This document shows, one piece after another, positions 29,487 to 60,265 of a stretch of DNA of 64,000 bases (positions within the stretch are counted from its first letter, which is position 1; every line of letters begins with the position of its first letter). The stretch lies in the NCBI GenBank assembly GCA_965217895.1, contig CBDCJV010000002.1, forward strand, positions 4,448,001 through 4,512,000, written 5' to 3'. Position numbers and translations under genes: made by a program. The notes beneath the pieces were generated by a model. It saw nothing but the letters and a program-made list of their open reading frames with translations. It was not told the DNA's origin and searched no databases. Source of the stretch: Waterburya sp. GTDB lineage: Bacteria > Cyanobacteriota > Cyanobacteriia > Cyanobacteriales > Xenococcaceae.

Positions 29487-29637
29487 TGTACATTCAATAA
29501 TTAAGTGTCGTTGTTCACACATTGTTGTCGTTATTAACAATTTAATGTCGCAAACTAACAAATTGTTGTGGTGAAGTAATAAATCAAACTGTTCACATAA
29601 TAATTGTCGCAATTAGAGCTTTAAAGATATTGTCTGT
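29487..29637 (+). repeat. CAST tRNA-proximal (left) end with tandem TnsB-binding sites
   Basis: Repeated ~20-bp units ending in TGTCG near 29507, 29527, 29547 and 29605. Confidence 0.85.
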
Positions 29638-29811
29638 TAAGGTGATTTCCAGCAAACATTATACCCACAAGAAAGCAACAGTATTCTGAAGTTGACGGAT
29701 GCAAGTGGGTATGGTCTTTCTTGGAAATCACCTAAGACGGGTATTCTTTCTACGTACTTTGTTTATATTATCTTTATTAGCCTAATAGTGAAATAACATT
29801 AGCTAGAGAGG

Positions 29812-29847
29812 TTTTCAGTCCTCTGCTCCTTTCAACCCTTCCCAAAG
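29812..29847 (-). CRISPR. Delocalised homing crRNA: truncated repeat plus 17-nt spacer against tRNA-Phe
   Basis: Minus strand CTTTGGGAAGGGTTGAAAG-GAGCAGAGGACTGAAAA; spacer identical to 29433-29449, which follows GTA at 29430-29432. Confidence 0.95.
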
Positions 29848-29912
29848 GCTAATATTGTAGTGATTGAATTATATTTGATGCTAATTATAGTTATATCTCA
29901 AAAAAGTTTAAG

Positions 29913-30115
29913 TTTTTAAACTCTTACGCTTAAGAAAGATCAAAGCAAGCAATACAAAAGTAAATAAAATTAGTAAAGCGACTAGAGTAATTGGTTGCTC
30001 ATATCTCTTTCAAACCCTCCCACTTCGGGAAGGTCAAAGCAACTATGGGGGCATTTGTATTACAGACCCAGATTAAACCTTTCAAACCCTCCCACTTCGG
30101 GAAGGTCAAAGCAAC
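29913..30115 (-). CRISPR. V-K mini array: two intact 37-nt repeats GTTGCTTTGACCTTCCCGAAGTGGGAGGGTTTGAAAG, one 35-nt spacer, one degenerate repeat
   Basis: Repeats at 30007-30043 and 30079-30115; degenerate copy at 29913-29949 (26/37 identical). Confidence 0.92.
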
Positions 30116-30317
30116 ACTACCCGTCAAATCTCCTGTCGAACCATGCTTTCAATTTAAATTCTGCCAAAGGTCAAATATCTTCAATTTGGCAAACATAAAA
30201 TTACTGCATGATAAAGGTTTAATTTAGTTTATCTTCGCTACAACCTTTGAATGACAAGAGTTTTAAATATTTGTCGAACCTCTCAGGGATTTCGTCCGCG
30301 CTTAGGTTCAACAAAAA
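30116..30317 (-). promoter_or_regulatory. V-K array leader homologous to the type I-D leaders
   Basis: TTGTCGAACCTCTCAGGGATTTCGTCCGCGCTTAGGTTCAACAAA at 30271 matches 39916-39960 and the reverse complement of 48137-48181. Confidence 0.85.
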
Positions 30318-30320
30318 ATA

Positions 30321-30650
30321 ATTTGGGAAGGATTCCTCCGATGAAGGAGGTGATTCAGTAACTACCACTCCAGTAATCTGTATCCCGATTTTGGGACTAG
30401 TCTCAAGCTGTTCCTCATCTTTAAGACATACTTCTTATTGCTGGGAGCGCACCTGACCGTTAATATAGAGTTACGAGATTCTACATTAAGGCACTTTCCT
30501 ATCTACATTAGCGAGAACTAGAGATAGCAGCTTCAGAAGCGGGTACCTACCAGGGTCAGAAAGAAAAATTGTCTTCCGACAATCAAACTAACCCTATTTT
30601 TCGGCGGTGCAGAGGACTTATTCATAAGACATAAACCGCGACGCTATTAT
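30321..30650 (-). ncRNA. Cas12k tracrRNA (about 330 nt, ends approximate)
   Basis: V-K tracr motifs AGGGTTAGTTTG, CTTTCTGACCCTGGTAG, AGGTGCGCTCCCAGCAATAAG and ACTGAATCACC; 3' anti-repeat AATCCTTCCCAAA. Confidence 0.9.
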
Positions 30651-30694
30651 TGTTATTCTATTGTCAAGGTTCGATTGAAGACATTAATTATTAT

Positions 30695-32770
30695 TTAGAC
30701 AGCTTTTTCAAGTCGAGAATTATAAGCAATGATCGCAATATTTTTGGCTTGTTCTTGCTTGCTTCCACCTAAAGGCTGTCGCGATTTTTCTATGGGAATC
30801 CTTACAATACTGGCTTTTTGACTTATAAAGTCTGTCAAACGACCGTAGCTCCAATTATGGACATTAACTCGATATTGTTTAGCATATTTTTTTTGACCTT
30901 CTTTATAGCCTAAGATTCTCTTTTCTGCTCTGGCTTGAACTTCGCTTTGGGTAATTTCTCGAATCTGACTAACTTCGGGCAGAACAATACTGCTAACGTG
31001 AAAAGATCGAGCAAGTTCTACAATGGCATCGGCAAATAATCGATCTATATGTTTACCTAAATTTGACTCTCCAAAGTTACTAGGGGAATTTCGCTTCTGT
31101 GCTTTATGACGTTTAATAGATAGCCTTTGTTTTTCTTGTCTTTGACGATTCAGCAACTTATAATTTTTGCCCAACAATTGTTTTGCACTACGATAAGTTA
31201 AGACTCGACCGCTAATTACATCAACTACCGCTACTGTAGTAGGGTTTTCCAAACCTAAAGATACTCCCAGAATAATTGATGGATTTTCTTGGTATAAATC
31301 TTCATGAGGTCGATCTGGAAGATTTTGTAAGTTAGCTAATTGAGTCTGTTTTCTCTTAATATGCTTTTGTTGTTCCGAATCAAGATCGCCTTTTTCTTGA
31401 GTTTGAGCGATTGCTTTTTTTGAGCTATTAGTTTTCTGCTCTGCTATTAATACGGTACCTTCTTTTGACCATAATCTAGTATCTATTGAACATTGAAGGT
31501 AAAGTTTGTGATTATTCCAAGGCTGCTCTTTACTTAGTCGTGTTGTTAGTTGTCTATAACTATGAAGCATAGATAATGCTAGATTATAGTCTCGATCGAG
31601 AAACAGCAAAAGACAAGCACGACTAATCGTTTTCTTACTTTTATGTCGCTTTTGTTTTCCTTCTCTCCATAAAATTCGTCCAGATCTTAGACTAAAAAGT
31701 GCGCTAGATAATTCACTATCTCTAAGTCCGTCCTTTTTGTCTTGCTTACTTTTCTCTTTGAGTTTTTGGTCTTCTAAAAAACGCCGAAACCAATCTAACT
31801 GTCTAGTATCACAACGAATCTCAAACCTATGTTTGCCTAAACCATTAAACTGAACGGACAAATTTCCTTGCTCGTCTCCTAGCCAAGTTAAATCAGTGTT
31901 ACTTTCATAAGCTATGGGATAAGGAACAGCAAAAGATTTTCTTAAAAGGTTATCCTGCAAAGATCGAGCTTCAATGTTGCCTTCAGGTGCGTAATTATCG
32001 TTAATCTTTTCTAGAGTTTGATTCCAGAATCTATTTTGTAGGTCTCTTCCGTTAGGAAGACGACTTCTTAGTTGCTTTTGAAGGTTTTCGATTTCTATTT
32101 CTTTTTTACGTCGACGCAGCGCATACCCTTCTGGATCTTCGTCATCTTCGTTTTTTTCATCAATCTGGCAACCATTTTTGAGAAGATACACTATGGCGCA
32201 TTTGCTGGCACTATCAAGAGTTTCATCGTATCTGTCAAGCAAAGAATTAAAGATAGTAGAGCTTTTTTTCTTGGATTTAGTTTTTTTCCGTTTTTTATGC
32301 TTCTTTTTAGGATTGATTTTTTGTTTATCTATTTGCTGCTCGATTTGCTGAAGTATTTTGAGTGCCAGGAGTCTAATTTCTGCCAAATCTTTGCCAGACT
32401 CTGTTTCTAATTCGCGATCGCTTTTTAGAATTGTCAACCAGCGTTGTTTTCTTTCAATTCTCTGACGTAGTTTCTTCTGAACTTTTAGCCAGGATTTAAA
32501 CATATAGTGAACTAAGGCGATTGCTGAAGTGTAAAAGCGTCCTGGTTGATTGGCAAAAGGTTCTCGTTTTTTGAGCGGAGCGCATAGCTCTTTAATAGGT
32601 TCCTGTGGCAAAGTCCCTTTCTCAAACCACTCTTTAAAATCTTTATGATCGGGTACTTGAACTAATAATTCATTGATTAAGGGTGTATTTTTCAAGGTCA
32701 TTAATTCCCAAAGATATTTTAATGACTCTGATTTGGCTACTATTCGACATTCGATGGTTTTAACGCTCAT
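30695..32770 (-). CDS. cas12k: Type V-K effector Cas12k, 691 aa
   Basis: LWELM..KNTPLINELL, QPGRFYTSAI, inactive RuvC GVSLGLENP and YRVNVHNWSYGRL motifs. Confidence 0.96.
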   Translation of the reverse strand: MSVKTIECRIVAKSESLKYLWELMTLKNTPLINELLVQVPDHKDFKEWFEKGTLPQEPIKELCAPLKKREPFANQPGRFYTSAIALVHYMFKSWLKVQKKLRQRIERKQRWLTILKSDRELETESGKDLAEIRLLALKILQQIEQQIDKQKINPKKKHKKRKKTKSKKKSSTIFNSLLDRYDETLDSASKCAIVYLLKNGCQIDEKNEDDEDPEGYALRRRKKEIEIENLQKQLRSRLPNGRDLQNRFWNQTLEKINDNYAPEGNIEARSLQDNLLRKSFAVPYPIAYESNTDLTWLGDEQGNLSVQFNGLGKHRFEIRCDTRQLDWFRRFLEDQKLKEKSKQDKKDGLRDSELSSALFSLRSGRILWREGKQKRHKSKKTISRACLLLFLDRDYNLALSMLHSYRQLTTRLSKEQPWNNHKLYLQCSIDTRLWSKEGTVLIAEQKTNSSKKAIAQTQEKGDLDSEQQKHIKRKQTQLANLQNLPDRPHEDLYQENPSIILGVSLGLENPTTVAVVDVISGRVLTYRSAKQLLGKNYKLLNRQRQEKQRLSIKRHKAQKRNSPSNFGESNLGKHIDRLFADAIVELARSFHVSSIVLPEVSQIREITQSEVQARAEKRILGYKEGQKKYAKQYRVNVHNWSYGRLTDFISQKASIVRIPIEKSRQPLGGSKQEQAKNIAIIAYNSRLEKAV

Positions 32771-32883: not shown

Positions 32884-33099
32884 TTAAAAGATTATTTTCT
32901 TAATTTGATTCAACTGATCTGCCAAGCTAAGAGTTCGTAAAACGTGATCGGGATGTTTTTCAAATTTTTTGCCCCAATTGCCAACAGTTCTAGGGCTTAA
33001 GCCAGTAGCCTCTGCTAGAGCATTGAGACAAGCTTTTCTAAATCCTCTTTGTTCTGGGGATAATTCTACCCACTTTTGACAGTATTCCCAAGGGGTCAA
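32884..33099 (-). CDS. Small putative HTH protein upstream of cas12k
   Basis: LAEATGLSPRTVGNW HTH-like segment; TTG start uncertain. Confidence 0.6.
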   Translation of the reverse strand: MTPWEYCQKWVELSPEQRGFRKACLNALAEATGLSPRTVGNWGKKFEKHPDHVLRTLSLADQLNQIKKIIF

Positions 33100-33328: not shown

Positions 33329-34285
33329 TTAGCTTTTGCAGTAGGTTTGGTAAGCTTTTTGAAATTCTGCTGCTATTGCATCTGCAAACCAATCGGGATT
33401 TAAAATCTCAGCATTAGAACCATATTGCATGATCCTTTGTCGAAACCAAAATAAACAATCTTCATTGGTTTTTATTTCTACCCATTCACGATCGCAATCA
33501 CTGTCTACTATTTGCTCGCGATCGCGACGAGGCTGATAGTTGCTCATGCCTTTACTAAGACGATATGTAATTGGTAATGTTGCAAACACAGTAGCAATCC
33601 ATTGGATTTGTGATGGCGGAAACACTCGAAGAATGCGATCTACTCTAAAAGGCTGATTTTTCTCTACCCAATGATTACGGTAATTCCAATTTGGAAGATA
33701 GGCAAAAAGATAAAGAACTCCATTGTGCAGTCTTAATTCCGAGCGATCTATATCCCAATTGTTTTCTTTGCCTTTGCTACTTCGATATCGAATTGAGTAC
33801 CGACACCCTTTATCAATTCTTTCTTGAAGTTGTGTCACAATCTTTTGAATTTTTGTTTCAGCATAGTCTACTGGAGGGCTAAAGTTAACTTTAAGATTAG
33901 GTAACTGCTTTCTATCATCTAAGTTGCCTATTCGTGCGATTTGTCCCGCTTTAGCGGAAAAACCCATGTCAGACAACATATAGGCTGCGGTGCATAATGC
34001 TTGTTGTTGTTGCTCGGAAAGAAGAAGGGGAAAACTAGATTCTAATAATTTATAAGGTTTGCTTGGCGCACTCTCTATTTTAAAACCACAATTTTTAAGC
34101 TTGCTAATGATTCTCGTTACTTTCTGTAAAGTATCTCCGTCTTCTTTTCCATATCTAGCAAGAAATTGACCCATTTCATCGGCTAATTCTGTTCTTTTTC
34201 TCGGTTTCTCTGCCAACAGCCTAATTATTTGAAGGACAAAAGCAACCTGGCTATATTCGTTATCATTTTTTGATGTCATATCCAA
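33329..34285 (-). CDS. WYL-domain transcriptional regulator of the I-D locus
   Basis: N-terminal wHTH; LYLFAY..FRVDRI WYL motif; divergent from cas3. Confidence 0.9.
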   Translation of the reverse strand: MDMTSKNDNEYSQVAFVLQIIRLLAEKPRKRTELADEMGQFLARYGKEDGDTLQKVTRIISKLKNCGFKIESAPSKPYKLLESSFPLLLSEQQQQALCTAAYMLSDMGFSAKAGQIARIGNLDDRKQLPNLKVNFSPPVDYAETKIQKIVTQLQERIDKGCRYSIRYRSSKGKENNWDIDRSELRLHNGVLYLFAYLPNWNYRNHWVEKNQPFRVDRILRVFPPSQIQWIATVFATLPITYRLSKGMSNYQPRRDREQIVDSDCDREWVEIKTNEDCLFWFRQRIMQYGSNAEILNPDWFADAIAAEFQKAYQTYCKS

Positions 34286-34830: not shown

Positions 34831-36927
34831 ATGAAAATAATTCTTAAGCCTTTATACTCAAAGCTAAATGTTGGGGTGCAAGGTTGCCCTGTAGGATGTC
34901 AAAGCACTTGTAAAGTAAAACCATATTTAGCTTGCGATAGTGAATGTCCGCTATCTTCTCATCAAGCACAAACTTATAAACACATAACTCAATCGGATGC
35001 AGATATTATCTTCAACACTTCTGCAACGGGTGATGGTAAGTCTTTAGCTGCTTACTTACCTGGATTGCTAAATAGCCAATTTCGGACAATGGGCTTGTAT
35101 CCAACAATTGAATTAGTAGAAGATCAAACCAAACAGCAAAAGGAATATCATACTCGTTTCGATCTCGATCCTATGTATCGAATAGATCGTCTTTATGGCA
35201 TGGAATTAAGCCGTAGGATAAAAGAACAAGACACAGATCGCTTCAATGTTTTGCTGCAATCCATAGAACAAAAGCCAGTTATTTTAACTAATCCCGATAT
35301 TTTCCATTTTATTACTCATTTTCGCTATCGCAATCCTGCTAGAAGTGCAGAAACTTTACCTTTTGCTTTAGCAGACTTTCCCGATCTTTGGGTGTTTGAT
35401 GAATTTCATATTTTTGGTTGTCACCAAGAAACAGCAGCATTAAACAGCATGGCTTTAATTCGACAAGCTTCCCCAAGAAAAAGAAAGTTTTTATTTACCT
35501 CGGCAACTCCCAGAGAAGATTTTATTCAACAACTCAAACAGGCTGATTTTAAGGTAGCAGAAGTCAAAGGAGAGTATAGCAGCGAAAACCAACCTGGATA
35601 CAGGCAAATTTTGCAGAAAGTCGAACTGGAATTTGTTCGCTTAGAAAAAGATACCAATACACTAGATTGGCTGTGTCAGAATAGCGATCGCCTTGGCACA
35701 AGTCTGGAAGCAGAAACAAGAGGTAGAGGCTTAGTTATTGTTAATTCTGTTGCTTTGGCAGGTAAAGCAGTAGCAAGATTAGAAGGATTATTACCTGATG
35801 TGATTGTCAAAGAAATTAGCGGAAGATGCGATCGCCAGGAAAAAGACGAAACGCGAAAACAATTAGAAAATGAGAATAAACCTGTCTTAGTAGTTGGGAC
35901 ATCGGCGGTTGATGTGGGAGTGGACTTCAAGATTCACTTACTAATCTGTGAGGGTAGCGACTCAGCAACAGTCATTCAACGTTTGGGACGATTAGGTCGT
36001 CATGCAGGGTTTAATAACTATCAGGCTTATGTATTAATTAACAACCATGCTTCTCATATAATTCCACGTCTGGAAGAAGAGATTAAAGATATTATCACCA
36101 GAGAACAATTAACCAAAGCTATTGAGTATGCTTTTAGTCCACCACAACAGTTTACTCAATATCGCCATAAGTGGGGTGCATTGCAAGCACAAGGAATGTT
36201 AACTGAGATGATGCGAGAAAATCCCAAGGTAATGAAACTGACTAGCGATCGCGTTAAAGCAGACTTACAGTACATTTATGGGAATAAGCTAGAATCGGCG
36301 CGTAAATACTGGTATAAGTTAAGCCAGCAGGAAAACGAAGTAGATAAAGCAATACAGACAGAAATATTGCGTTTTCGCGGTGGTTCGACTTTACAAGCTG
36401 CGGTGTGGGATGGCAAAAGATTTTATCAATACGATCTGCTGCGGTTTTTACCCTATGCCCTTGTAGAAATAATCGATCGCGATACTTATATTGCTGCTGC
36501 TACCAAACACAATCACATTGAAGAAGAATTTAATAAGAAATATATTGATGTCTATGTGCGGGTAACTGACTGGTTAGATAAGCGTCAACCCATAGAAATT
36601 AAGTGTAATCGCTACAGTCATAAATTGGAAATAGGTAATTTGTTTTTAGGCGATCGTCTAACCATAACAGGACATCCTCAATCTGAAGTAGCTAATTGTT
36701 TAAATGGCAAGAAATTACTCAGTTTTTTGATTTATCTCGGTAAAAAAAGCCAGTGGGATGTGGCGCGGATTTTGAAATTGAGTCCTTTGTTTGGATTATA
36801 TTGTCTCACTGACGGATCGAGTAATAGTTACGCTTGTGCTTTCAATCAAGATGCGATGTTACTAGAAGCTTTAAAGTTTAACTTGCCTAGAGAATTGCGC
36901 GATCGCCCTAACTGTATAATTCTCTAG
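34831..36927 (+). CDS. cas3: Type I-D helicase Cas3' (no HD domain)
   Basis: ATGDGKS, DEFH, SAT and QRLGRLGRH helicase motifs. Confidence 0.93.
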   Translation: MKIILKPLYSKLNVGVQGCPVGCQSTCKVKPYLACDSECPLSSHQAQTYKHITQSDADIIFNTSATGDGKSLAAYLPGLLNSQFRTMGLYPTIELVEDQTKQQKEYHTRFDLDPMYRIDRLYGMELSRRIKEQDTDRFNVLLQSIEQKPVILTNPDIFHFITHFRYRNPARSAETLPFALADFPDLWVFDEFHIFGCHQETAALNSMALIRQASPRKRKFLFTSATPREDFIQQLKQADFKVAEVKGEYSSENQPGYRQILQKVELEFVRLEKDTNTLDWLCQNSDRLGTSLEAETRGRGLVIVNSVALAGKAVARLEGLLPDVIVKEISGRCDRQEKDETRKQLENENKPVLVVGTSAVDVGVDFKIHLLICEGSDSATVIQRLGRLGRHAGFNNYQAYVLINNHASHIIPRLEEEIKDIITREQLTKAIEYAFSPPQQFTQYRHKWGALQAQGMLTEMMRENPKVMKLTSDRVKADLQYIYGNKLESARKYWYKLSQQENEVDKAIQTEILRFRGGSTLQAAVWDGKRFYQYDLLRFLPYALVEIIDRDTYIAAATKHNHIEEEFNKKYIDVYVRVTDWLDKRQPIEIKCNRYSHKLEIGNLFLGDRLTITGHPQSEVANCLNGKKLLSFLIYLGKKSQWDVARILKLSPLFGLYCLTDGSSNSYACAFNQDAMLLEALKFNLPRELRDRPNCIIL

Positions 36928-37190
36928 CAATAATGATACCTACATTGTAAAAAGATAAGTTTGTCGGAACTGACTTGATACACCAGCCTATGTTCTTGTG
37001 TGATTCTTCTCGACCATCTTGAACCTGAAAAATATTTAAGGTGTTCTGGTTTACCAATTCCCTCAAAAGGATTTGCAATGGTAGCTTCGACTAAATTTAA
37101 AATGCGATCGCTTATCTTCTTGTCTTTCTTAAACCACCACCGTAAATCTTCTCTAAACTGGCGATCAAAAACTACTGCCCGATTAGTCAA
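36924..37190 (-). CDS. yoeB: Txe/YoeB-family toxin
   Basis: PFEGIGKPEHLK..WSRRITQEHRLVY...CRYHY. Confidence 0.93.
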   Translation of the reverse strand: MTNRAVVFDRQFREDLRWWFKKDKKISDRILNLVEATIANPFEGIGKPEHLKYFSGSRWSRRITQEHRLVYQVSSDKLIFLQCRYHYC

Positions 37191-37473
37191 TCTCTAATTC
37201 CTCACACAGTTGTTTTAAGGTTTGAGATTCTATCTCTTCTCCTTCTAGTCGATCTGCTCGTTCCATCGCAGCGAAGAGCTTTTGGGCATTAGCTGGGGAT
37301 TTTAATAAATGAAGAGTCTCCATCATGCTGGCAAGTTCTGAAGCTGCCAGGATAGCAACGTCTTCTTTTCCTGTTCTACTAACTATTATACAGCCACGAT
37401 CTTCGATAACTTCGTCGAGAACAGATGCTAGATTTTGGCGCAAGTTGGTATAGTTTGTCTGTTTGGCTAACAT
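37183..37473 (-). CDS. yefM: Phd/YefM-family antitoxin
   Basis: YTNLRQNLASVLDEV...ETLHLLKSPANA; GTAC operator-like repeats upstream. Confidence 0.92.
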   Translation of the reverse strand: MLAKQTNYTNLRQNLASVLDEVIEDRGCIIVSRTGKEDVAILAASELASMMETLHLLKSPANAQKLFAAMERADRLEGEEIESQTLKQLCEELEID

Positions 37474-37681
37474 ATTTGAGTACTTATATCTGTACTTATT
37501 ATAGCTCTTTTCAGTTAACAGTTATCAGTTAGCAGAAATCTAAAAATATAGAGTATTTCAGTCCCGCAATTGGGATTTTAAGGTTTTCAACGAGAAGGAA
37601 AGCGGATTATCTCTCAGCTTGATTGCGCGTTTCAGTCCCGTAATTGGGATTTCGTGGTTTTCAACCCACGAGTAGCTAGTT

Positions 37682-47808: not shown

Positions 47809-47831
47809 CAGTCAACATTTATCAGATTTTC

Positions 47832-48125: not shown

Positions 48126-48326
48126 TCGAATTATTTTCTGTCGAACTCAAGCGCGGGCGTAATCCCTGAAAGGTTTGACAAAACTCTAGAACCTTCACAA
48201 TTCAACACTTTGAGCAGTTTGCTTTTTGTATTATGCGTATTTCATTTAGTGATTGGAAGCGAATTTTGGGAGGCTCGTCAGTTTCAGTTGTCAAAGGCAT
48301 TGATTATAATTGTTTCGGGTGGCGGA

Positions 48327-50153: not shown

Positions 50154-52736
50154 TTACAATCTCGGATCGACAGGTTCGCTTTCTAAAGCTAATACTCCAA
50201 AAACACATTCATGAACCTGCCTCAACGGTGCCTTAGAAACAAAACCTTCTAAAGCTTCAATCCCCAATGCAAATTCTCTCAATGCCAGCGATCGCTTCTT
50301 TGATAACCCCCTTTGCTTTAAAGATGTTAAATTTTCTGGTAGTGAATATTCCAAACCGTAGATAATTCTCAGATATTCCGCACCGCGACACTTGACCGCA
50401 GGCTGAACCAACTTGTTACCGTTGCGAGTAATAAAGTTTATCGGCTTAACTACCATACCTTCCCCACCAGCAAGTGTCAGTTCTTGCCACCACTTAATAC
50501 CCCCTCGGCATTCGGCTTCGTTGTTGAGATCGATAGCTTTGTAGTTAGTTGCTAATAATATTTCCGAATCACCCTCAGAGATCTCCGCAATTTGTTCCAG
50601 ATGCCAGATATGAGTTTTATCGGTATGAACCTTGCCTTCGGTTGCCAAAATATGGAACGGTGCTAATTTGAGATCCTCGATCTTATTTACCGACCAACAG
50701 TATTGACGATAGGCATTAACATACTTCTCTGCTAAATCTTGTTTCTGTTGATACTGAGATAATAGAGAACCAACATCGATACCTCTATTACTTGCCTGTT
50801 GCAAACAGTCAACCGTCGCACTCAATCCTTGGTTAGCTGCTACTCCTACAGGAACGTACTGCTGCTTGAGTAGTTCCCGTGCCTTTGCCGACCAGGGCAT
50901 CAATTCGCAGTCGAGACAAACCCAATCTGTATCTAAATTGTTCCAGAAGTTGCTGTCAGTCAGAGCCGTATTGAGGCGAGTTAGTAATGCGCTTTCTAGT
51001 GCTTCGCGAGCGAAAAAGCGTCTACCCGTTCGGGTGTAGCAAATCCCAAAACTACTATCTTCAAGACCGAATCTTTTAGCAGCAGCTTGAGAATCTCGAC
51101 AAACAATAACTACAGCGCGAGAACCCATGTGCTTTTCTTCACAAATAACCGTTTCAACTCCCTGTTTTCGGTAATAGTCAAAAGCTTCTATGGGATGTTC
51201 CAACAAGTTAGGTAATTTAGAAGTTGCTACGGGAGACATGGTAGGTGGTAGATAGATCAGCCACTTGGGATTGACCGCAAAGCGACTCATCACTTCTAAA
51301 GCAGCAGTTGCTTGTGATTCTCGGATGGTAATCTGGCGGTTGAGTTTGGTAGCAATAAAACGCTTGCCCGTAACATCGGCAATATCTAACACATCGTCTT
51401 GCTTTTGTTGGAGGCTGAAATTATTGGTTTCGGCATCTAAAGGCTTGATGGGTTGGCAGTAAACCCTAGCTGCTTCGACGCTAACTGACTCTCGTTCGGA
51501 ATAGCGCAGGGCGGTTAATTTACCGCCAAAGACACAGCCCGTATCAATATCGACAGTGTTATTTAGCCATTGCGCCTCGACTACAGGAACGTGTCCGTAA
51601 ACTACCAGACTGTTTCCTCGATATTCTGATGCCCATTCATAGCGTACTGGCAATCCAAAGCTGTCTATTTCTCCTGTAGTTTCGCCATAGAGAGCAAAAT
51701 TACGAACGTAAGCCGAACCTCTACCCTGTAATTCTTCTCGCAGTCCTGCATGAGCCACTACTAAGCGTCCTTCATCTAAAACATAGTGACTGATTAGAGA
51801 ACGTAGAAAAGTTTGAATCTCTTCGGTTGCTGCCTGATGCTGTTTTAGAGGCATGGCTTCGATCTCGGCTAAGGTATTTTCCAAACCATGATTGATTTTT
51901 ACTTTCTTGCCATTGAGCTTTCGCATTAATTTGTTTTCGTGATTGCCCAGAATACAAAGTGCAGAATCTGCAACCATCATGTTGTGTACCAGCTTGAGGG
52001 TATCTAGAACGCGAGAGCCTCGATCTACTAAATCTCCAAGGAATAGGGCTTTGCGACCTTGGGGGTGGGTATAGGTAGGAAACTGCCAGAAGGGGTGAGT
52101 TATGGCGTTACTTTCATTAGCAACATAACCAAGTTCGCCTAATAACTTTTCCAACTCATCACAACAACCGTGAACGTCTCCGATGATATCGAAAGGACCA
52201 TACTCGTGTTTGCGGTTAGTCCACATCAACTGTCGTTCCACTTCAACAGTATCGATTTCTGCTTCTGAAGAGAGAGTATAGATAAAGCGAAAGCCTTCTC
52301 GTTTGAGGTTGCGGAGCGATCGCTTCAAACTGTTAACCTGATTGCGAACTACATGACTACCAAACTGGCGATCTGGTCTTTGTCGATTGCGCTGCTGACA
52401 AATAGACTCAGGCGCGTCTAAAACTATGGCAACGGCAAAACAATGATACTGTTTGGCTAGCTTTAATAATGGTTTGCGGCTTTCGGGTTGGACGTTAGTA
52501 GCATCGATAACCGTCAGTCTTCCTGCTGCCAAGCGTTTGGCTAAAATGTAGTGCAATACGTCAAAGGCATCTTTAGTAGCAGCTTGGTCGGTTTCGTCGT
52601 CGGAGACTACACCGCGAAAATAGTCTGATGAGAGTATTTCTGTCTCTTTAAAATGGGTGCGAGCAAAGGTAGACTTACCAGAACCCGATGCGCCAATTAA
52701 GACGATTAACGATAGTTCGGGAAAGGTTAGTTTCAT
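50154..52736 (-). CDS. pnkp: Polynucleotide kinase-phosphatase-ligase (bacterial Pnkp)
   Basis: GASGSGKS kinase; GDVHG, GDLVDRG and GNHE phosphatase; EEKHMGSR ligase motif. Confidence 0.95.
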   Translation of the reverse strand: MKLTFPELSLIVLIGASGSGKSTFARTHFKETEILSSDYFRGVVSDDETDQAATKDAFDVLHYILAKRLAAGRLTVIDATNVQPESRKPLLKLAKQYHCFAVAIVLDAPESICQQRNRQRPDRQFGSHVVRNQVNSLKRSLRNLKREGFRFIYTLSSEAEIDTVEVERQLMWTNRKHEYGPFDIIGDVHGCCDELEKLLGELGYVANESNAITHPFWQFPTYTHPQGRKALFLGDLVDRGSRVLDTLKLVHNMMVADSALCILGNHENKLMRKLNGKKVKINHGLENTLAEIEAMPLKQHQAATEEIQTFLRSLISHYVLDEGRLVVAHAGLREELQGRGSAYVRNFALYGETTGEIDSFGLPVRYEWASEYRGNSLVVYGHVPVVEAQWLNNTVDIDTGCVFGGKLTALRYSERESVSVEAARVYCQPIKPLDAETNNFSLQQKQDDVLDIADVTGKRFIATKLNRQITIRESQATAALEVMSRFAVNPKWLIYLPPTMSPVATSKLPNLLEHPIEAFDYYRKQGVETVICEEKHMGSRAVVIVCRDSQAAAKRFGLEDSSFGICYTRTGRRFFAREALESALLTRLNTALTDSNFWNNLDTDWVCLDCELMPWSAKARELLKQQYVPVGVAANQGLSATVDCLQQASNRGIDVGSLLSQYQQKQDLAEKYVNAYRQYCWSVNKIEDLKLAPFHILATEGKVHTDKTHIWHLEQIAEISEGDSEILLATNYKAIDLNNEAECRGGIKWWQELTLAGGEGMVVKPINFITRNGNKLVQPAVKCRGAEYLRIIYGLEYSLPENLTSLKQRGLSKKRSLALREFALGIEALEGFVSKAPLRQVHECVFGVLALESEPVDPRL

Positions 52737-54187
52737 CTGACAAACACCCCCATACTAGTCGGCGCACCTACTTCTGGATCGACATCTCCAATACCGCTCA
52801 ACTCGACCTGGTAGTCAAACTTTTGAGCGACACGATTTGCCCAATCTTGAAACTCCTGTCGCGTCCATTCAAAGCGATGATCGCGGTGGCGTAGCTTACC
52901 TTCGACTAGAGTAAAACGGACATTGTATTCGATATTGGGTGTGGTCACAATAACTAATTTGGGTCGGGCAAATTCAAACAAGACTCTTTCTAAAGTAGCA
53001 AGGCGGTCTAAGTCGAGATGTTCGACTACTTCTATTAGTGTAGCTGCGTCGTAACCCGTAAAACGGCGATCGCGATAAACCAGCGACCCTTGAATTAGTT
53101 GAATCTTTCCCTGCTGATGTATCGGTAGTTCGTCGAGTCTTAACCTTTTGCTAGCTATTTCTAAAGCGCGATAGGAGACATCTACCCCCGTAATCTGTTT
53201 AATATTTGGTTCTTTGAGCAAATACTGTAACAGTTTGCCTTCACCACAACCGAGGTCGATAACCCGCTTTACGTTGTAATTTTTCAAGGTAGCGGTAACT
53301 GTTCCTAATCGCTGTTGGTTGAGCGTGGGATAGGCACAAAGGACTTGTCCGCATGTACTTGTTTCCGCATCTAGAACCACGCTGTTGAGACTAATTGGTT
53401 TTTCGAGTGCTGTTTCTTGACGCTCGTCTTCCGTATCTGTTACCTCAACATCTTTACCGTCTTCTTCGGTTAACCTTTCTAAAGCAATTCGAGTTAGTAG
53501 TTTTCTGCGTTTGAGATATCGCTGGGTAATTTTATCTCGAATGGGATGATCGTTGAGCCAGCTTTTTCCATATCGCAGTAGTTTTTCGATTTCTGCTTCA
53601 CCTACCCAGTAGTGCTTATCCTCATCTAATACGGGAATTAAAACGTAAAGATGACTAAGTAAGTCGCTAAGTCTGACTGTATTAGTCAGAGTCGCGTCGA
53701 TATAAATGCTGTTAGAGTCTTCGGTATATGTTTCGTCGCCAGGTATTACTCGTCCTTCTACTTGATATCCCAAAGGCTCGAATAGTTGACGTAGAAAATT
53801 ATAACCACCAAGACAGGGCAAAACGGGTATATGTACGGTTAAGGGAATAGGCTGAGATACCAATTCTGGTAAGTTTTTACAGCGTCCTGCTAGTGCCGTG
53901 CGATAAACTTCGGCGATCGCCACACTGAGAAACGAAGATGCAACATAGGGGCGATCGTTAACGTAATGAGCTAGTGTTTGAGCTTGCCATGATTTGTTCC
54001 GAACTAATTCTACGGGATTAATGTCTAGAAGCAAGGCAGTGGTGCAGCGTTCTACGGTTGCCTCTGGATAGAATACATGTGCTTTACCAAACGATAGGGA
54101 AAAGGTCTGGCATTTATCGGGATGTTTGTGGAGTAAGTAACCCAAGTCTGTAGCGGGTTGATGGGTAGTAGTGATAGTCAACAGCAT
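52733..54187 (-). CDS. hen1: 3'-terminal RNA 2'-O-methyltransferase Hen1
   Basis: ATDLGYLLHKHP, DLGCGEG, EVVEH and RHRDHRFEW motifs; ATGA overlap with pnkp. Confidence 0.95.
   Translation of the reverse strand: MLLTITTTHQPATDLGYLLHKHPDKCQTFSLSFGKAHVFYPEATVERCTTALLLDINPVELVRNKSWQAQTLAHYVNDRPYVASSFLSVAIAEVYRTALAGRCKNLPELVSQPIPLTVHIPVLPCLGGYNFLRQLFEPLGYQVEGRVIPGDETYTEDSNSIYIDATLTNTVRLSDLLSHLYVLIPVLDEDKHYWVGEAEIEKLLRYGKSWLNDHPIRDKITQRYLKRRKLLTRIALERLTEEDGKDVEVTDTEDERQETALEKPISLNSVVLDAETSTCGQVLCAYPTLNQQRLGTVTATLKNYNVKRVIDLGCGEGKLLQYLLKEPNIKQITGVDVSYRALEIASKRLRLDELPIHQQGKIQLIQGSLVYRDRRFTGYDAATLIEVVEHLDLDRLATLERVLFEFARPKLVIVTTPNIEYNVRFTLVEGKLRHRDHRFEWTRQEFQDWANRVAQKFDYQVELSGIGDVDPEVGAPTSMGVFVR
53322..53383. 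repeat. In-frame small repeat insertion in hen1
   Basis: AGCGTGG...CCACGCT inverted ends flanked by GTTG direct repeats; 62+4=66 bp. Confidence 0.75.
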
Positions 54188-54249
54188 TTTAGTTATCTAT
54201 AAGGTATTGAAGTTCTTGCTTTGGGTTTAGGTAACAATACATTTCTCTT

Positions 54250-55641
54250 TCAGATCTCTACTAATGACGACTCGATATTTCTTTCCTGTTCGTCAGTTAG
54301 ATAATCTCGTTCGACATCAATAACTGATAGCGGTACATCTTCATTAATCTCTCTCAAAGAAGAATAAATATCCCATCTTTTGTCCTCCGATAAACCCCAA
54401 ACTACCAAAGTAATCTCCGACCAGTATGACAGCGGTTCGGGCTTAGTCAAATCGCCAATTACACCAATCCTACTAGGAGCAAAGCTTTCTCTGATAATTG
54501 CAGCAACCTCCCGTGCTTTTTGCCACCACTCGGTTTTACGCTGCTCATCTAGTCGTTCTAAATTCAATCTATTGAATAAAGCATCGCACCACACGGTAGG
54601 CGGTAACACCTTAATACTACTGGTCAAACCAAAAGTCATCAGCAGCATTCCGATGAGATTGCGAATGCCTGTTTTGCCACCAATATCTGGTTTGCCCTCG
54701 AAGAATTCAAATTTGGCTTCGGGACTCCAGCAAATATACTGCTCGAAACTAATAGGAGTAGGTTTTAACTGTATCTCAGGCTGAAACGGCAGTTCTCCCC
54801 AACCCAATCCATTCTCAGGGAAATGTATCTTGGAGCTGTCAGAACTCGGAGCAACTTCTAAGCGAAATAACTCTAGGTCGAATCTTGCTTCTTGCCAGAG
54901 TCGGTAAGTCAAGAATACTAAACCAGGTATGTTAGAAGGTCGGTAGCATCCGTCGAGTTCTAGCTGCTGCTGGTGAAACTTACCATCCAGGTTATGCCAA
55001 AATTCGATTTGTTCGTTTTGAGGATCGATTATCCAGTATTCTTTTACTTCACCCGCCTGATAGTAATCTTTTTTAGCTACCTTATCGGCATAGCTATGAC
55101 CAGGGAGAATCACTTCTATAACCAAATCGGCAGCGCCATCTAAATAGTAGGCTTTTAGCTGGTGTAAATGTTCGCGAGCGATAAATACGAGATCGGGAGT
55201 AAAGCCATTATCGCCGAGGCGCATCACAAAATCACGACCTAGAACCGTTCCTCCTAGAGATTCACCAATCTGCCAAAGTGCTGTAGTTAGCTTCTGCTGT
55301 AGCGAGTTATGGTCGTAGTTATTTTTGCCGTAACCCGCTGTCAAATCTTCTGCTCGGTATTCTATAGATATAGCGATCGCTTTTAAGTCGAGTAAAGTGC
55401 TACGTAGATCGTCTTCATTAATTTCTAATTGATCGAGTTCCATGCTGGCTGCTAAAGCTTTAATCCAGAGAGATATTGGAGCTAGAGCTACTGCTGCTTC
55501 TGCTCCCCAACCTTGAAGAACCTGTCGTAACAATAGACGACTGCCAACTATGGTGTTGCCGACAATCAGCTTGCCCTCGATGAGTTCTAGTTTACCTTCA
55601 GTGCCTCGGCGACAGAAATCGTTGAATAACTCAGAGTTCAT
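54250..55641 (-). CDS. Uma2 (DUF820) endonuclease-like protein with C-terminal degenerate nucleotidyltransferase-like domain
   Basis: PDLVFI..DLVIEVI..K..YY..GEVKEYWIIDP (Uma2); RIGVIGDL...SEITLVV resembles the MNT GS/DxD region. Confidence 0.75.
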   Translation of the reverse strand: MNSELFNDFCRRGTEGKLELIEGKLIVGNTIVGSRLLLRQVLQGWGAEAAVALAPISLWIKALAASMELDQLEINEDDLRSTLLDLKAIAISIEYRAEDLTAGYGKNNYDHNSLQQKLTTALWQIGESLGGTVLGRDFVMRLGDNGFTPDLVFIAREHLHQLKAYYLDGAADLVIEVILPGHSYADKVAKKDYYQAGEVKEYWIIDPQNEQIEFWHNLDGKFHQQQLELDGCYRPSNIPGLVFLTYRLWQEARFDLELFRLEVAPSSDSSKIHFPENGLGWGELPFQPEIQLKPTPISFEQYICWSPEAKFEFFEGKPDIGGKTGIRNLIGMLLMTFGLTSSIKVLPPTVWCDALFNRLNLERLDEQRKTEWWQKAREVAAIIRESFAPSRIGVIGDLTKPEPLSYWSEITLVVWGLSEDKRWDIYSSLREINEDVPLSVIDVERDYLTDEQERNIESSLVEI

Positions 55642-55668
55642 TTTTCGTATAGAGCCTGGGAAAATAAG

Positions 55669-56340
55669 TTATGAGTCGAGTTTTAGTTCGAGCTTGGTAG
55701 CTAACTGTCTTAAACTCTGTGCGATCGCGCTTTGTTTGGTATCGGCATAGGTCGATATAGGTCGAACCAAATCGATTCCGCTAATACTACAAGCCCAACG
55801 TCCATTTTCTTGCGGCAAAGCTGTGACCCGAATGGCTTCGTCAAAGAGGTCTACACTTTCTATTGCATAACTGCGACTGCTCTCAACACAATTAAACAAA
55901 TTGCTTTGCGGAAGAGTTTCGATTAGATGCGAGCGAAATGCTTCTGTGTCTACTGCTAAGTCTTGTAATAATTTAACAGCCACACCTTCACCTAAGTCTA
56001 AAATTCCCAGCATCAAATGTTCTGGCGCGATTATCGCATTGTTTTGGGTATAGTCGTCAGCCAAAGCAAAAATTCTTCTAACATTTGGAGTAAAGGGGAT
56101 TTCTGAAGCTACGAATCCCGCTCCTCTACCAATACGTGTCTCAATTCTCTCTTTCAAAACATCTGTGGTCAGAGCAACCGATGAGATATATATTGAGGCT
56201 TGATTGGTTTCTTCCTCTGAAATTCCCAACAGTAGTTGTTCGCTGCCAACGAAATTGTGTCCGAGACGACGAGACTCGATGTTTGACAGACTTATTACCT
56301 TGAGAGCTGCGACACTGAATTTGGCTTTAATCTCTCTCAT
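55669..56340 (-). CDS. Clp N-terminal-domain protein with possible HicB-like C-terminus
   Basis: ESRRLGHNFVGSEQLLLGI, PFTP and PEHLMLGIL; no AAA+ domain. Confidence 0.8.
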   Translation of the reverse strand: MREIKAKFSVAALKVISLSNIESRRLGHNFVGSEQLLLGISEEETNQASIYISSVALTTDVLKERIETRIGRGAGFVASEIPFTPNVRRIFALADDYTQNNAIIAPEHLMLGILDLGEGVAVKLLQDLAVDTEAFRSHLIETLPQSNLFNCVESSRSYAIESVDLFDEAIRVTALPQENGRWACSISGIDLVRPISTYADTKQSAIAQSLRQLATKLELKLDS

Positions 56341-56810: not shown

Positions 56811-56855
56811 AGTTAAATTAGTAGGAATACTGAAAAAACTTTTTTAGCAATAAAC

Positions 56856-57383
56856 TTAATTGTTTATTTTATTTTGATGTCTAGCCATTTTCCTAAACTG
56901 CAAACCACAATGCTGACATTCGCCGATTTCCCACTGAGAAGGAATCAAAAAAGCAGTACCGCAGTTAATACATTTAGCTAAAAAACGAACGTTGTGGAGA
57001 TCGCATCCTCTTTTATCTTTAAACTGCCATTCAATTCGGTGATGGGGTTTTTCTTGATAACAAGCAGCACACAACAAAGTGGGCTTGCATTTCATCGTAA
57101 CTCCCTTTGGTGGAAACATTAGTCTCAGGCGATCGACATCCACCATTACTATCTCAGCCAAAGCTGCTAACTCTTGCTGAGTAGGAAAGGGATTGAAATA
57201 GAACTTTTCCCATCTTGCCAAAACCGCACCTAAACCTACTACCTCTCCCAAACCGCTAGCAGCAGAGAATCTATTACCCTTAGCCCGTCGAAAGCGGCCT
57301 AAAAAATGACTAATGCTTTCTCCTTCCAATGGTTCAACTTTGGTTAGCCAATAGTGATTATTTTCTCTTACTTTTTCTTTCAT
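56856..57383 (-). CDS. tniQ: TniQ
   Basis: PLEGESISHFLGRFRR, CAACY, CDLH, CINC and CQHC motifs. Confidence 0.95.
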   Translation of the reverse strand: MKEKVRENNHYWLTKVEPLEGESISHFLGRFRRAKGNRFSAASGLGEVVGLGAVLARWEKFYFNPFPTQQELAALAEIVMVDVDRLRLMFPPKGVTMKCKPTLLCAACYQEKPHHRIEWQFKDKRGCDLHNVRFLAKCINCGTAFLIPSQWEIGECQHCGLQFRKMARHQNKINN

Positions 57384-58224
57384 AAGACCATTTGGTTGAA
57401 GATATTACTTGCTTCAAAATTTCAAGATCGACTTTCTGATGACCCTGACGTAAAGATCTAATGGCAGCTTTACGCAAAACCATGTCTAATCTACCAACTA
57501 ATTTTTTCGTAGCTATTTTTAAATCACTAAATAATTTCCCTTTAGTAAGATTAGAGGGTTCGGGTAGCTGCAAAACATCTCTTTCCCAGATCGCTACCAT
57601 TTGTTTAAATTCCTTATCATCGAGGCGATCTAGTTCGTATTCTTCTAAGAAGCGATTCTCAACTTGCTCGTCGCGTTTAATTACTGCGTGCAAACGGTTT
57701 GTCGTACCTACCAGCAATACTGCTAAATTTAGCTCATCTTCATCGTAAACGTGTCTAAGATCGGAGAAGGTTTTTTGTTCGAGGTGGTTGGCTTCATCTA
57801 CAATCAACATTTCAACTTGATGAATTGCTAAGGCATCCAAAGTTCTTTCTCTAAGATCGGAAACATTTCCATTGGTGGGCTTATTCAATGCTTTGAGAAT
57901 TTTGATAAAAAATTCCCTAGAACCACAACTTACGGGAATTTGAATATAAACCACGGGTTTTATTCTTTTACCTTTGCCAGACTTAAATTTATTGTATCTT
58001 TCAGCAAAAGACTTGCAAGTCACTGTTTTACCCGAACGAGATTCACCCACCAAAAGTCCTGTACTCTTGGACATTAACAATTCATACATCCAGCTATGAC
58101 AATTTTTAACTCGCTTTAATTCAAGATAGGGTTGACGACTTAAGCGTTCTATTTCTGCTTGAATTTCGGCAGAAGGTGGTTCAAAGTCACCAAATTGATT
58201 AGCAATAGTTTGAGTGTTGGTCAT
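57358..58224 (-). CDS. tnsC: TnsC AAA+ ATPase
   Basis: GESRSGKT Walker A; IVDEA Walker B; RDEQVENRF. Confidence 0.95.
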   Translation of the reverse strand: MTNTQTIANQFGDFEPPSAEIQAEIERLSRQPYLELKRVKNCHSWMYELLMSKSTGLLVGESRSGKTVTCKSFAERYNKFKSGKGKRIKPVVYIQIPVSCGSREFFIKILKALNKPTNGNVSDLRERTLDALAIHQVEMLIVDEANHLEQKTFSDLRHVYDEDELNLAVLLVGTTNRLHAVIKRDEQVENRFLEEYELDRLDDKEFKQMVAIWERDVLQLPEPSNLTKGKLFSDLKIATKKLVGRLDMVLRKAAIRSLRQGHQKVDLEILKQVISSTKWSYERKSKRK

Positions 58225-58237
58225 TATTTCAGTTCAT

Positions 58238-59941
58238 TTAATCTTCTTCAAATAAATCGTCCATATATTGGACTTTTAATGGAGGTGGTAGTTCTAGTTC
58301 TTCATCGTTTACCTCCAAGTCCGTTACTTCTGGCTCGGCTATGTCTAGCTTCTCAACCAATGATTTAACAGGGTTTACAGTCTGATGGGCATTCTGGCGG
58401 CGTTGTTGAAGATTGCGAGCAGCAGTTTCTTCTACAAATTCTTCTCGATCTAACATTGCCAAAATAGCTTGATTATTAATTTCCTCACTTTCATCGCGAA
58501 GAGCTTGCTTAATAGCTCGAAGATGCCTGAGAGATAATGTCCTATCTTCAATCCCCTGCGCGTGAGCATAATCGAGAAACTGTTCTGTGGAGTCAGGAAG
58601 ATGTTCGTAAACTAGAATTGTCGTAATGTCTTGAGGATCGTAGCGTATGGAGATAATTTCTCCAGCCATGCTTTTCAAGTGTTCTGACTTGTATACTAAG
58701 CTTTCAAAATTAATCGTTCCATACTTTTGAACTTTTCGCCTTTCCTGTTTCATTAAAGCAATATCTAATTCTCGCTCATCAAAAAGATAAGGATCGAATA
58801 ATAGCCCTGCCTCCCAACGCTCCATTCGACTCTGGTTTTGGCTGCGAGCATCGGTTTTCTGGTTGTATTCGTCAACTATGTAGCGCACTAAAATTTGTTC
58901 TAAGTCTTCGATTGTCAGCAGAGCATTTTTATCTACATCTTTTGGTCTTTCTTGAACGTTTCTACCCGTATATCCTGGTAGTTCGCGCAAAACGCGATCG
59001 TTCAAACTACGAAAGAATCGCTCTACAATTCCACCGTCTGATGGTCTTCTTCTTAAAGCACCACTAAATTCTAGTTCTACCGCTACTTGTTCTGTTATGT
59101 GAATCGAACGAAAGTCTTTTCCGCCGTCGGTGTAGAAGTAGTTGGGTTTACCATAGCTAGTCCACTCGTTTTTTAGTTGATACTCCGAACTATAGTGTTT
59201 GGGAAAGATAGCGTGACGTAAAGCCAAAGCATCAATGTTAGAACTAGGCGCATCAAATCCTAGATAAAATCCCATCGGACAACGCGAATAGGAATCAATG
59301 ATAATTGTCAACCAAGGGCGATCCAATACTCCGTATTCATCTACCAATCTAACGTCCAATCTAGTATGGTCGCATTGCCAAACATCATTACTGCATTCTA
59401 CTTCTAACTCTCTACCGTCACGAGCCATGTGGGTTAATCTAGAGCCAGTATATCCAGCACTACGGGCTTTGAGTTTTTTCTGTTTTTCTTCTATAAAGCG
59501 ATCTAAGATGCGATAGACAGTCTGATGAGAAGGATATTCTTTTTTCTTCAATCCTTGTTGCAAAGCTCGCCCTTTAACTTTGAGAAATACTTGATGGCGA
59601 GTAATTCTTCTACCGTCTTTGTTGCCTTGTTTATAGGTTTCTAGAATAAAGTCTTCCCAATCTTCTCCAATACGATAATGACCTTTATCAGAACGGGTTT
59701 TGGTTAATCCCACTAATCCTTGCTCGCGATACTTCTTCAGCAGTCTTTCTACAGAGCGAATTGATATCCCTAATTTCTTTGCTGCTGCTTTTTTTCTCTT
59801 GCTGTAGGTAGCGCGATCGCATGGTTCAGTCAAACTTTGAATTATCTCCATCTTTAACCTAACGTCATCGGTTATTAAATCGTCAGATGGCAATCGATTT
59901 TTATTATTAGAGTGTGTATCTTCAGAGTTTTTGGTTAACAT
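58238..59941 (-). CDS. tnsB: TnsB DDE transposase
   Basis: WQCDHT, YTDGGKDF and GGIVERFF give an intact DDE triad. Confidence 0.96.
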   Translation of the reverse strand: MLTKNSEDTHSNNKNRLPSDDLITDDVRLKMEIIQSLTEPCDRATYSKRKKAAAKKLGISIRSVERLLKKYREQGLVGLTKTRSDKGHYRIGEDWEDFILETYKQGNKDGRRITRHQVFLKVKGRALQQGLKKKEYPSHQTVYRILDRFIEEKQKKLKARSAGYTGSRLTHMARDGRELEVECSNDVWQCDHTRLDVRLVDEYGVLDRPWLTIIIDSYSRCPMGFYLGFDAPSSNIDALALRHAIFPKHYSSEYQLKNEWTSYGKPNYFYTDGGKDFRSIHITEQVAVELEFSGALRRRPSDGGIVERFFRSLNDRVLRELPGYTGRNVQERPKDVDKNALLTIEDLEQILVRYIVDEYNQKTDARSQNQSRMERWEAGLLFDPYLFDERELDIALMKQERRKVQKYGTINFESLVYKSEHLKSMAGEIISIRYDPQDITTILVYEHLPDSTEQFLDYAHAQGIEDRTLSLRHLRAIKQALRDESEEINNQAILAMLDREEFVEETAARNLQQRRQNAHQTVNPVKSLVEKLDIAEPEVTDLEVNDEELELPPPLKVQYMDDLFEED

Positions 59942-60025
59942 GACCAGTACTGAAATTAATTGAATTAGAAATCAATTAATTCAAAATTACTATTTTGTTC
60001 AAATAGTACCAAAATTTTATCAAAT

Positions 60026-60265
60026 TTACGACACCTAATTTATTAAACTTTACAAGATCAGAAAAGCTTGCTCAGAAAAATATCCGACATATAAATATTG
60101 AAATAGTTGTGTTTACGACAAATAAATTGTGAAAACAACTAGAGAAAAGAAGAAACGGAAAAATAGTCTAAATAACAATACAATGCTTAAGCAGAAAGCT
60201 TTTGAGGATGTTTACCATAACGACATCATTTTTTTAAGTTGCGACATTTAATTATTGAATGTACA
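60026..60265 (-). repeat. CAST tnsB-proximal (right) end with TnsB-binding sites
   Basis: CGACA-containing units near 60030, 60085, 60116, 60221 and 60242; terminal TGAATGTACA. Confidence 0.88.

Follow-up and report, generated by a model that had tools for sequence, protein, structure and literature searches.

The window analysed here, a 64,000-nucleotide (nt) stretch of the genome of Waterburya sp. (contig CBDCJV010000002.1, positions 4,448,001 to 4,512,000), contains a 30.8-kb CRISPR-associated transposon (CAST) of type V-K with its ends at 29487 and 60265. In addition to cas12k and the transposition genes, a complete CRISPR-Cas system of type I-D with the adaptation genes cas4, cas1 and cas2 lies between these ends. 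The source genome (G000) is 99.9% complete, and its relatives are given as other G-numbered genomes. A first-pass annotation of the window had claimed that the inverted repeats enclose an apparently intact I-D locus, and this was confirmed by a single pair of repeats, uninterrupted open reading frames (ORFs) and profile matches. It had further proposed that the Cas4-Cas1-Cas2 of the cargo could write spacers into the V-K array, making the element a self-programming unit. The following features were located (aa, amino acids):

29412..29484, + strand: tRNA-Phe(GAA), the attachment gene, outside the element
29487..29615, + strand: left end, with the terminal inverted repeat of 24 bp followed by four TnsB-site-like motifs (repeat and motif scans)
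29812..29843, - strand: attachment guide, consisting of a truncated repeat (29829-29843) and a 17-nt spacer (29812-29828) identical to tRNA-Phe (17/17)
29913..30115, - strand: V-K array, with two intact 37-nt repeats (30007-30043, 30079-30115), one 35-nt spacer and a degenerate repeat near 29913-29949
30116..30324, - strand: V-K leader, with an I-D-type distal motif core at -188 and a proximal motif at -50
30325..30694, - strand: predicted trans-activating CRISPR RNA (tracrRNA) region, placed by position and by 92-94% conservation in the clade; its anti-repeat (30325-30334) pairs with the V-K repeat
30695..32770, - strand: cas12k, 691 aa (NF038191, 827 bits, cut-off 150)
32884..33099, - strand: 71-aa ORF adjoining cas12k, co-directional, 81-93% conserved in the clade, without family match
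33329..34285, - strand: WYL-WCX regulator of the cargo CRISPR locus
34831..36927, + strand: cas3′, the type I-D helicase (TIGR03158)
36924..37473, - strand: YoeB-YefM toxin-antitoxin pair
37555..39770, - strand: I-D array 1, 25 repeats and 23 spacers, with its leader at 39771-39960
near 37666-38139: DUF6888-DUF6887 gene pair interrupting array 1
40152..45676, + strand: cas10d, csc2, csc1 and cas6 (Cas10d: TIGR03174)
45696..48125, + strand: adaptation module cas4, 140-aa ORF, cas1d and cas2
48126..48949, + strand: I-D leader and array 2, 9 repeats and 8 spacers
49322..56340, - strand: other cargo, namely a 184-aa ORF, a Pnkp and Hen1 RNA-repair pair, a Uma2-family nuclease and a Clp-N protein
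56856..59941, - strand: tniQ, tnsC and tnsB, next to the right end
60025..60265, - strand: right end, with the terminal inverted repeat of 24 bp preceded by five TnsB-site-like motifs

The terminal inverted repeat was found in the window only at 29487-29510 (+) and 60242-60265 (-) and at no internal position. Scanning the whole window with up to three mismatches gave these two matches, compared to none in 100 shuffles. The termini are of the TGT/ACA type, and the clusters of TnsB-site-like motifs adjoin both ends only, none being present inside the element. All cas and tns/tniQ genes named between the ends are uninterrupted ORFs. The Cas12k of the window aligns with ShCas12k and like it reads VSLG at the RuvC-I position, which is catalytic in active Cas12, indicating an inactivated RuvC; it also carries an insertion of about 40 aa. 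TnsB is a stand-alone protein of 567 aa and of the ShTnsB type, and its three acidic motifs are kept in an alignment with ShTnsB. TnsC is a TniB/AAA protein, TniQ is encoded by a single gene (175 aa), and no TnsA family was detected among the 28 ORFs scanned. The predicted tracrRNA region did not match any Rfam family; the anti-repeat sits at its 3′ end, and the 3′ end of the V-K repeat fits the V1 pattern.

Cas12k, TniQ, TnsC and TnsB insert a V-K element downstream of a protospacer whose protospacer adjacent motif (PAM) is GTN. Here, the protospacer lies within tRNA-Phe (29433-29449) beside a GTA PAM (29430-29432), at 54 bp from the left end; a position 50-66 bp downstream of the tRNA protospacer was taken as the spacing of V-K attachment. 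The inactivated Cas12k, tnsB-tnsC-tniQ at the right end, the 17-nt tRNA guide with its GTN PAM and the TGT/ACA termini are the features expected of a V-K CAST, from which the element departs by the absence of a 5-bp target-site duplication and by the adaptation genes between its ends.

The absence of this duplication, with GCATT in the left and ATAAG in the right flank, weighs against mobility of the element as one unit. However, only 2 nt separate tRNA-Phe from the left end, and about 13 bp are absent at the left flank compared to the homologous site. Since the right flank matches the sequence 10 nt past a second, partial tRNA-Phe copy in 33 of 36 positions (C2:2549277-2549228), both ends mark one original site, of which about 13 bp have since been lost on the left. 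A later event driven by transposase or by recombination might have removed these base pairs. Such a loss would result if the same protospacer was targeted once more or if tandem insertions recombined with each other, and it would explain the missing duplication. The definition of the ends is validated by G011 and G438, where perfect 5-bp duplications flank the same termini. No duplication was observed in the three cargo-bearing elements with both ends visible (G000, G017 and G443), which is less certain for G017 and G443 because their ends lie on different contigs. The missing duplication is a mark of the insertion event and not of family identity.

The cargo comprises every component of a type I-D system: a Cas3′ helicase, Cas10d with an HD domain, Csc2, Csc1, Cas6, Cas4, Cas1d, Cas2 and arrays of leader and repeats. 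In Cas10d, the HD motif is kept and the C-terminus is Cas11d-like. Cas1d matches TIGR04093 with 409 bits (cut-off 385), aligns over its full length to the Cas1 of PDB 7cr6 and is the sole Cas1 of this nearly complete genome. The two arrays have different repeats and hold 31 spacers in total. In type I-D systems, Cascade and Cas3′ destroy GTN targets, Cas1-2 requires leader motifs and Cas4 selects GTN. Profile searches assigned no family to the 71-aa and 140-aa ORFs; the former is a candidate for a V-K regulator of a fourth type, in addition to CvkR, Arc_1 and Arc_2. A second DUF6887 gene lies 5′ of cas3′ (34524-34742), and similar cassettes are scattered through the family.

With ShCAST (Tn7747) and AcCAST (Tn7746), the element has in common Cas12k, 37-nt repeats, a truncated repeat with a 17-nt tRNA guide, the GTN PAM and tnsB-tnsC-tniQ without tnsA in the same gene order. 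It differs from both by the Cas12k insertion, by the co-directional 71-aa ORF in place of a divergent CvkR/Arc gene and by the missing duplication, and unlike them it encloses cas4-cas1-cas2 together with a full interference module. In the accessible parts of bioRxiv 10.1101/2021.02.06.429022 and of PMC11406308 or PMC9881144, V-K elements are described as being without adaptation genes. Two other identities were rejected. V-K subgroup V2 is characterized in the available text of PMC12416283 by its own repeat 3′ end, an Arc_2 regulator and an alternative tracrRNA, whereas the window shows a V1-pattern repeat 3′ end, an anti-repeat at the tracrRNA 3′ end and no divergent Arc-like ORF. A type I-D CAST (McCAST, CyCAST) would have a fused TnsAB and TnsD instead of a stand-alone TnsB, one TniQ and Cas12k. 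As far as the accessible text of PMC10293859 describes it, CyCAST (Tn7745) resembles the window in being a Tn7-like element with Cas1, Cas2, Cas4, Cas6, a Cascade with intact HD and Cas3′. In CyCAST, however, the I-D Cascade is the target selector and acts with TnsAB, TniQ and TnsD, while in the window element targeting is assigned to Cas12k, TnsA and TnsD are missing and the I-D system, the second of two CRISPR systems, travels as cargo. The full gene set, the WYL regulator, the GTN PAM and the long leader with proximal and distal motifs are common to the cargo and other type I-D systems; the location inside a transposon, the two arrays with different repeats and the array and toxin-antitoxin pair between cas3′ and cas10d set it apart. 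The part of Benler et al. (PMC8649781, Table 1) that was available lists two Tn7-like transposons with complete type III cargo, one with type I-B and none with I-D. Those elements, like the window element, carry defence systems and rarely a whole CRISPR system as cargo, to which the window adds an integrase that matches the leader type of the element itself. No V-K element with I-D cargo was found in the accessible literature, including the available text of PMC9938897, PMC11656645 and PMC12416283, a search outside of which most subscription papers lie.

Close relatives of the cargo Cas1 (at least 87% identity) were detected in six of 61 family genomes, at full length in G000, G020, G017 and G464 and partially in G443 and G014; the next best match reached 46%. 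Within G000, G020, G017 and, as a fragment, G443, this lineage (87-94% identity, FastTree support 1.0) lies inside ends of the same clade. The I-D architecture of the window is repeated in G020 at the same tRNA-Phe; there, cas12k and cas4 are broken, and a second V-K element cuts into the right end. In G017, cas4-cas1d-cas2 is combined with Cas8a, Cas5a, a DevR/Csa2-type Cas7 and a fused Cas3 (I-A-like), and this cargo is on two contigs, broken at one insertion sequence. The G443 element carries I-A-like cargo with a cas1 fragment and cas2 at tRNA-Lys, where it has its own 17-nt guide, a GTA PAM and a 60-bp spacing; it spans three contigs, one join being unproven. In G019, cas3′ to cas6 and cas4 are kept intact (90-96% identity) and are flanked by remnants of the 71-aa gene on one side and of tnsB on the other, while cas12k, most of tnsB and cas1, in whose place an integrase cassette stands, have been lost. 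A V-K repeat abuts a cas3′ fragment in G005. The clade members G445 and G011 lack CRISPR cargo, and a search of their genomes (100% and 86% complete, respectively) gave no cas1. In two sequencing runs that contain the window, a diverged copy bearing a G020-like spacer is present as well, so that G000 and G020 may share a habitat. The leader of array 2 is 99% and its repeat 100% identical to G020 (48126-48363 versus L002:11605-11842), compared to 79-94% for adjoining genes, which speaks for a recent exchange of this block.

The TnsB of the window is nearest to the cargo-free G445 (94%) and G011 (92%; grouping support 94/98, not starred), and its I-D genes are nearest to G019, so the element is a mosaic whose parts have different closest relatives. 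These mosaic identities would also fit a composite that was never mobile in its present form, made of halves from different insertions or of a resident element into which the I-D block recombined. The same can be said of the missing duplications in G000, G017 and G443, as opposed to the perfect ones in G011 and G438, and of the tRNA-Phe/purQ site common to three of the four cargo-bearing elements, which occupy two tRNA sites in total. On the other hand, there are no internal ends, all transposition genes of the window are intact, and the missing duplications of G017 and G443 are the less certain ones. The PAM-to-end distances at tRNA-Phe in the clade (54, 59, 60 and 63 bp) differ as expected of separate insertions, with 54, 59 and 60 bp speaking against a composite, and cargo is also present at tRNA-Lys in G443 with a guide of its own. 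It seems quite improbable that the element is such a composite.

The first-pass annotation had called for a survey of V-K CASTs for such cargo. In an even draw of 401 genomes of the phylum (at least 95% complete, G000 included), Cas12k was present in 44 and Cas1d in 85, and a hand count found Cas1d somewhere in 24 of the 43 other Cas12k genomes. We searched 68 Cas12k genomes for any Cas1 and TnsB, with G000, G017, G020 and G443 excluded by design, and dropped eight with fragmentary or short-contig cas12k. The remaining 60 genomes contain 78 cas12k loci, of which 49 (in 40 genomes) could be paired with a tnsB located no more than 100 kb away on their own contig and 29 could not. Not one of the 49 paired V-K loci has cas1 between cas12k and tnsB. 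A cas1 located 21 kb from cas12k in G447 was rejected as a second capture, as it lies outside that element. Conversely, tnsC and tniQ were found beside two of 160 Cas1 loci (flanks up to 10 kb), both from the clade of the window. I-D or cas1 cargo in V-K elements is thus rare overall and recurrent in one clade. Free-standing I-D systems with a longer Cas10d occur in six of the 61 family genomes.

The claim that the cargo integrase could write into the V-K array was examined at the leaders. The distal core lies at -188 in the V-K leader of the window and at -178 in the cargo leaders, as anchored at the first repeat, which is a difference of one helical turn, and a related proximal motif lies at -50 in both. 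The accessible part of Kieper et al. 2019 (PMC6607411) shows that a motif lying about 50 bp upstream, together with distal motifs, is needed for I-D acquisition. With a motif derived from clade leaders, the scan covered 45 unique Cas1d leaders from 152 loci and 29 V-K leaders, obtained from 36 loci tried. The distal core was present at -177 to -182 or -188 to -193 in 35 of the 45 Cas1d leaders and in 21 of the 29 V-K leaders outside the clade; in the shuffle control, which counted a match anywhere, it occurred in 9/2250 (Cas1d) and 6/1450 (V-K). The scored proximal pattern was present in 33/45 and 21/29 of these outside leaders and in 0/17 clade leaders, whose proximal motif deviates. Since the motif is general to V-K leaders and is also kept in the cargo-free sister elements, the compatibility did not arise with the cargo. 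Judged by these motifs, the V-K leader is of the I-D type, which is a general trait and not one particular to cargo-bearing elements. Writing by the cargo integrase into the V-K array in cis is plausible, as both I-D motifs are present one helical turn from the cargo spacing. In V-K and Cas1d leaders alike, the distal motif occupies one of two set distances that differ by a helical turn, a pattern indicative of an integration mechanism that is phased and bends DNA.

This part of the annotation stands in so far as the genome encodes no Cas1 besides that of the cargo, the leader motifs are shared and the arrangement recurs. The idea itself was published before and the motifs are general. As far as the text of bioRxiv 10.1101/2021.02.06.429022 was accessible, I-D Cas1-2-4 was proposed there in 2021 as an in-trans writer of V-K arrays, on the basis of the PAM, the length and the ends of the repeats and a leader motif near -44; the proposal is repeated in the available parts of PMC9881144 and PMC11406308. 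In that hypothesis the writer is a host system, whereas the window element holds writer and array in cis, and the distal motif in two phases is an addition. For the question of how V-K transposons without adaptation genes gain spacers, the locus offers a natural cognate pair of writer and leader. The I-D writing hypothesis is directly testable here, because writer and V-K leader are on one element, no other Cas1 is present and the two cargo leaders serve as built-in positive controls.

The V-K array holds one canonical spacer, compared to 31 in the cargo arrays. Among the cargo-bearing relatives, G020, G443 and G017 have 0, 0 and 5 V-K spacers (1, 1 and 6 repeats), while the cargo-free sisters G445 and G011 have 6 and 5 (7 and 6 repeats) and the median of 30 arrays outside the clade is 4. 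No spacer is common to V-K and cargo arrays among 74 spacers. For the single V-K spacer of the window, no exact match was found in viral contigs and no match with up to 3 mismatches in 60 family genomes. No expanded V-K array was seen among the matches listed in contigs of four sequencing runs for the left half of the element, and contigs drop rare variants. None of the runs listed as containing the element is an RNA run. Five of the 31 cargo spacers match outside of arrays with up to 6 mismatches among 277 sequences, several of which were chosen for earlier matches; against phage and plasmid collections, array 1 gave weak or repeat matches only. In line with the annotation, which had attributed GTN PAMs to both systems, GTN was observed at the GTA-flanked attachment protospacer and at the best match of four of these five traceable spacers, the fifth (4-5 mismatches) having GCA or GGG. 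Among the targets are a phage tail gene and a repeated element that encodes an integrase and an endolysin, and the cargo spacers appear to be ordinary anti-phage memory. The latter element is small and prophage-like (integrase, M15 endolysin and unassigned genes; L214, L269-L272), occurs in several family genomes and is matched by two or three cargo spacers. A copy of this target with 5 mismatches and a GTG PAM is present in the genome of the window itself (G000:C2:3925874).

That three of the four cargo-bearing elements have V-K arrays with no more than one spacer (0-1) could also mean that Cas12k uses the CRISPR RNAs (crRNAs) of the cargo directly, the V-K array being dispensable and hence shrunken. 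The accessible text of PMC11300857 reports that ShCAST transposes with I-D repeats, in an assay with a high unguided background. The anti-repeat, however, pairs with cargo repeats at -6.6 kcal/mol compared to -14.3 kcal/mol with the V-K repeat, and the same crRNAs would send Cascade and Cas3′ to destroy the target. We therefore regard such borrowing as very unlikely. The V-K repeat of the clade (30079-30115) is predicted to form a strong hairpin (-14.6 kcal/mol) ending 8 nt from its 3′ end; this layout resembles a Cas6 substrate, and the cargo Cas6 might cut it.

It seems likely, though by no means assured, that the I-D system is defence cargo and that adaptation in cis is a probable but incidental consequence. 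This reading is supported by the 31 spacers of the cargo versus one in the V-K array, by the prophage-like targets with GTN and by G019, where the effectors outlast the transposon genes. The host would keep the element for its immunity, to which the Pnkp-Hen1, toxin-antitoxin and nuclease cargo also points; the cargo integrase might occasionally write into the V-K leader, and recombination would shuffle modules between sister elements. Several observations weigh against it. What stays constant in the cargo is the cas1-cas2 lineage, whereas the effectors are swapped between I-D and I-A-like types, so adaptation could be what is kept. Such swaps are ordinary, however, as 48 of 160 Cas1 loci carry cas10d and 51 of 160 a DevR-type Cas7. 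In G017, the only full-length cas1 is the cargo copy and the cas4 copies are broken. Two of its five V-K spacers are 42-43 nt long, a length seen for 3 of 131 spacers in V-K arrays elsewhere (post hoc Fisher p 0.01), and one spacer (L005:7215-7256) matches its own chromosome in 42 of 42 positions at the 3′ end of a conserved gene (L207 near 4038), with a TAG flank and no GTN PAM. These lengths and the self-match give a weak post hoc hint that writing in cis may be real. Without Cas4, PAM selection is lost and spacers become longer, their mode shifting by only 1 nt, as far as the available text of PMC5896167 describes. Spacers of at least 40 nt number 6 of 20 in those cargo arrays whose cas4 is broken, 0 of 31 in the window and 3 of 21 in G019, which has an intact cas4. 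This length fingerprint, itself post hoc, is blurred by G019 and by the published 1-nt shift.

The alternative proposed by the first-pass annotation is a selected self-programming unit, in which the clade keeps cas4-cas1-cas2 and thereby frees the transposon from a host I-D system in reaching plasmid and phage targets. The architecture does recur in relatives, with the sole Cas1 of G000 belonging to one lineage that is combined with two effector types at two tRNA sites; the scarcity of close Cas1d relatives in the family suggests that host adaptation of this kind may be scarce, and the G017 hint would fit as well. Selection for such a unit appears unlikely to us, since V-K spacers number 1, 0, 0 and 5 with cargo, compared to 6 and 5 in the cargo-free sisters and a median of 4 outside the clade, and no V-K spacer is found in the cargo arrays. 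Moreover, cas4 is frameshifted in G017 and G020, cas1 is broken or lost in two relatives, the duplication is missing, and G464 has the same Cas1 lineage without a clade TnsB in its assembly. More broadly, one may tentatively envisage an adaptation-autonomous V-K lineage that has its own Cas4-Cas1-Cas2, exchanges its interference modules, writes its own GTN spacers, spreads immunity through the family and leaves a defence locus behind when it decays, a picture we hold to be doubtful. In this clade, a V-K CAST acts as the carrier of entire class 1 immune systems, and some members are relics in which immunity outlasts the transposon.

Further observations concern the surroundings of the insertion site. 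A tyrosine integrase with arm-like repeats lies 3′ of the right end (60266-61592). The same arm-like repeat and flank accompany the partial tRNA-Phe copy, which is found 1.96 Mb away in inverted orientation (G000:C2:2548391-2549340), and beyond it lie another V-K-like end and a 3′ fragment of cas12k. This arrangement suggests that a tRNA-Phe island was split by a rearrangement and that the CAST is inserted at its boundary. The G445 element (L011 near 7025) stands behind a partial tRNA-Phe copy without the PAM and the first bases of the guide target, as if this copy had been displaced by an integrase island. Elsewhere in G000, a second pair of Tn7-like terminal repeats with 3 mismatches to the end of the window element is located far apart at C2:127 and C2:3483340, and a distant tnsB-like match is present at C2:2079337.

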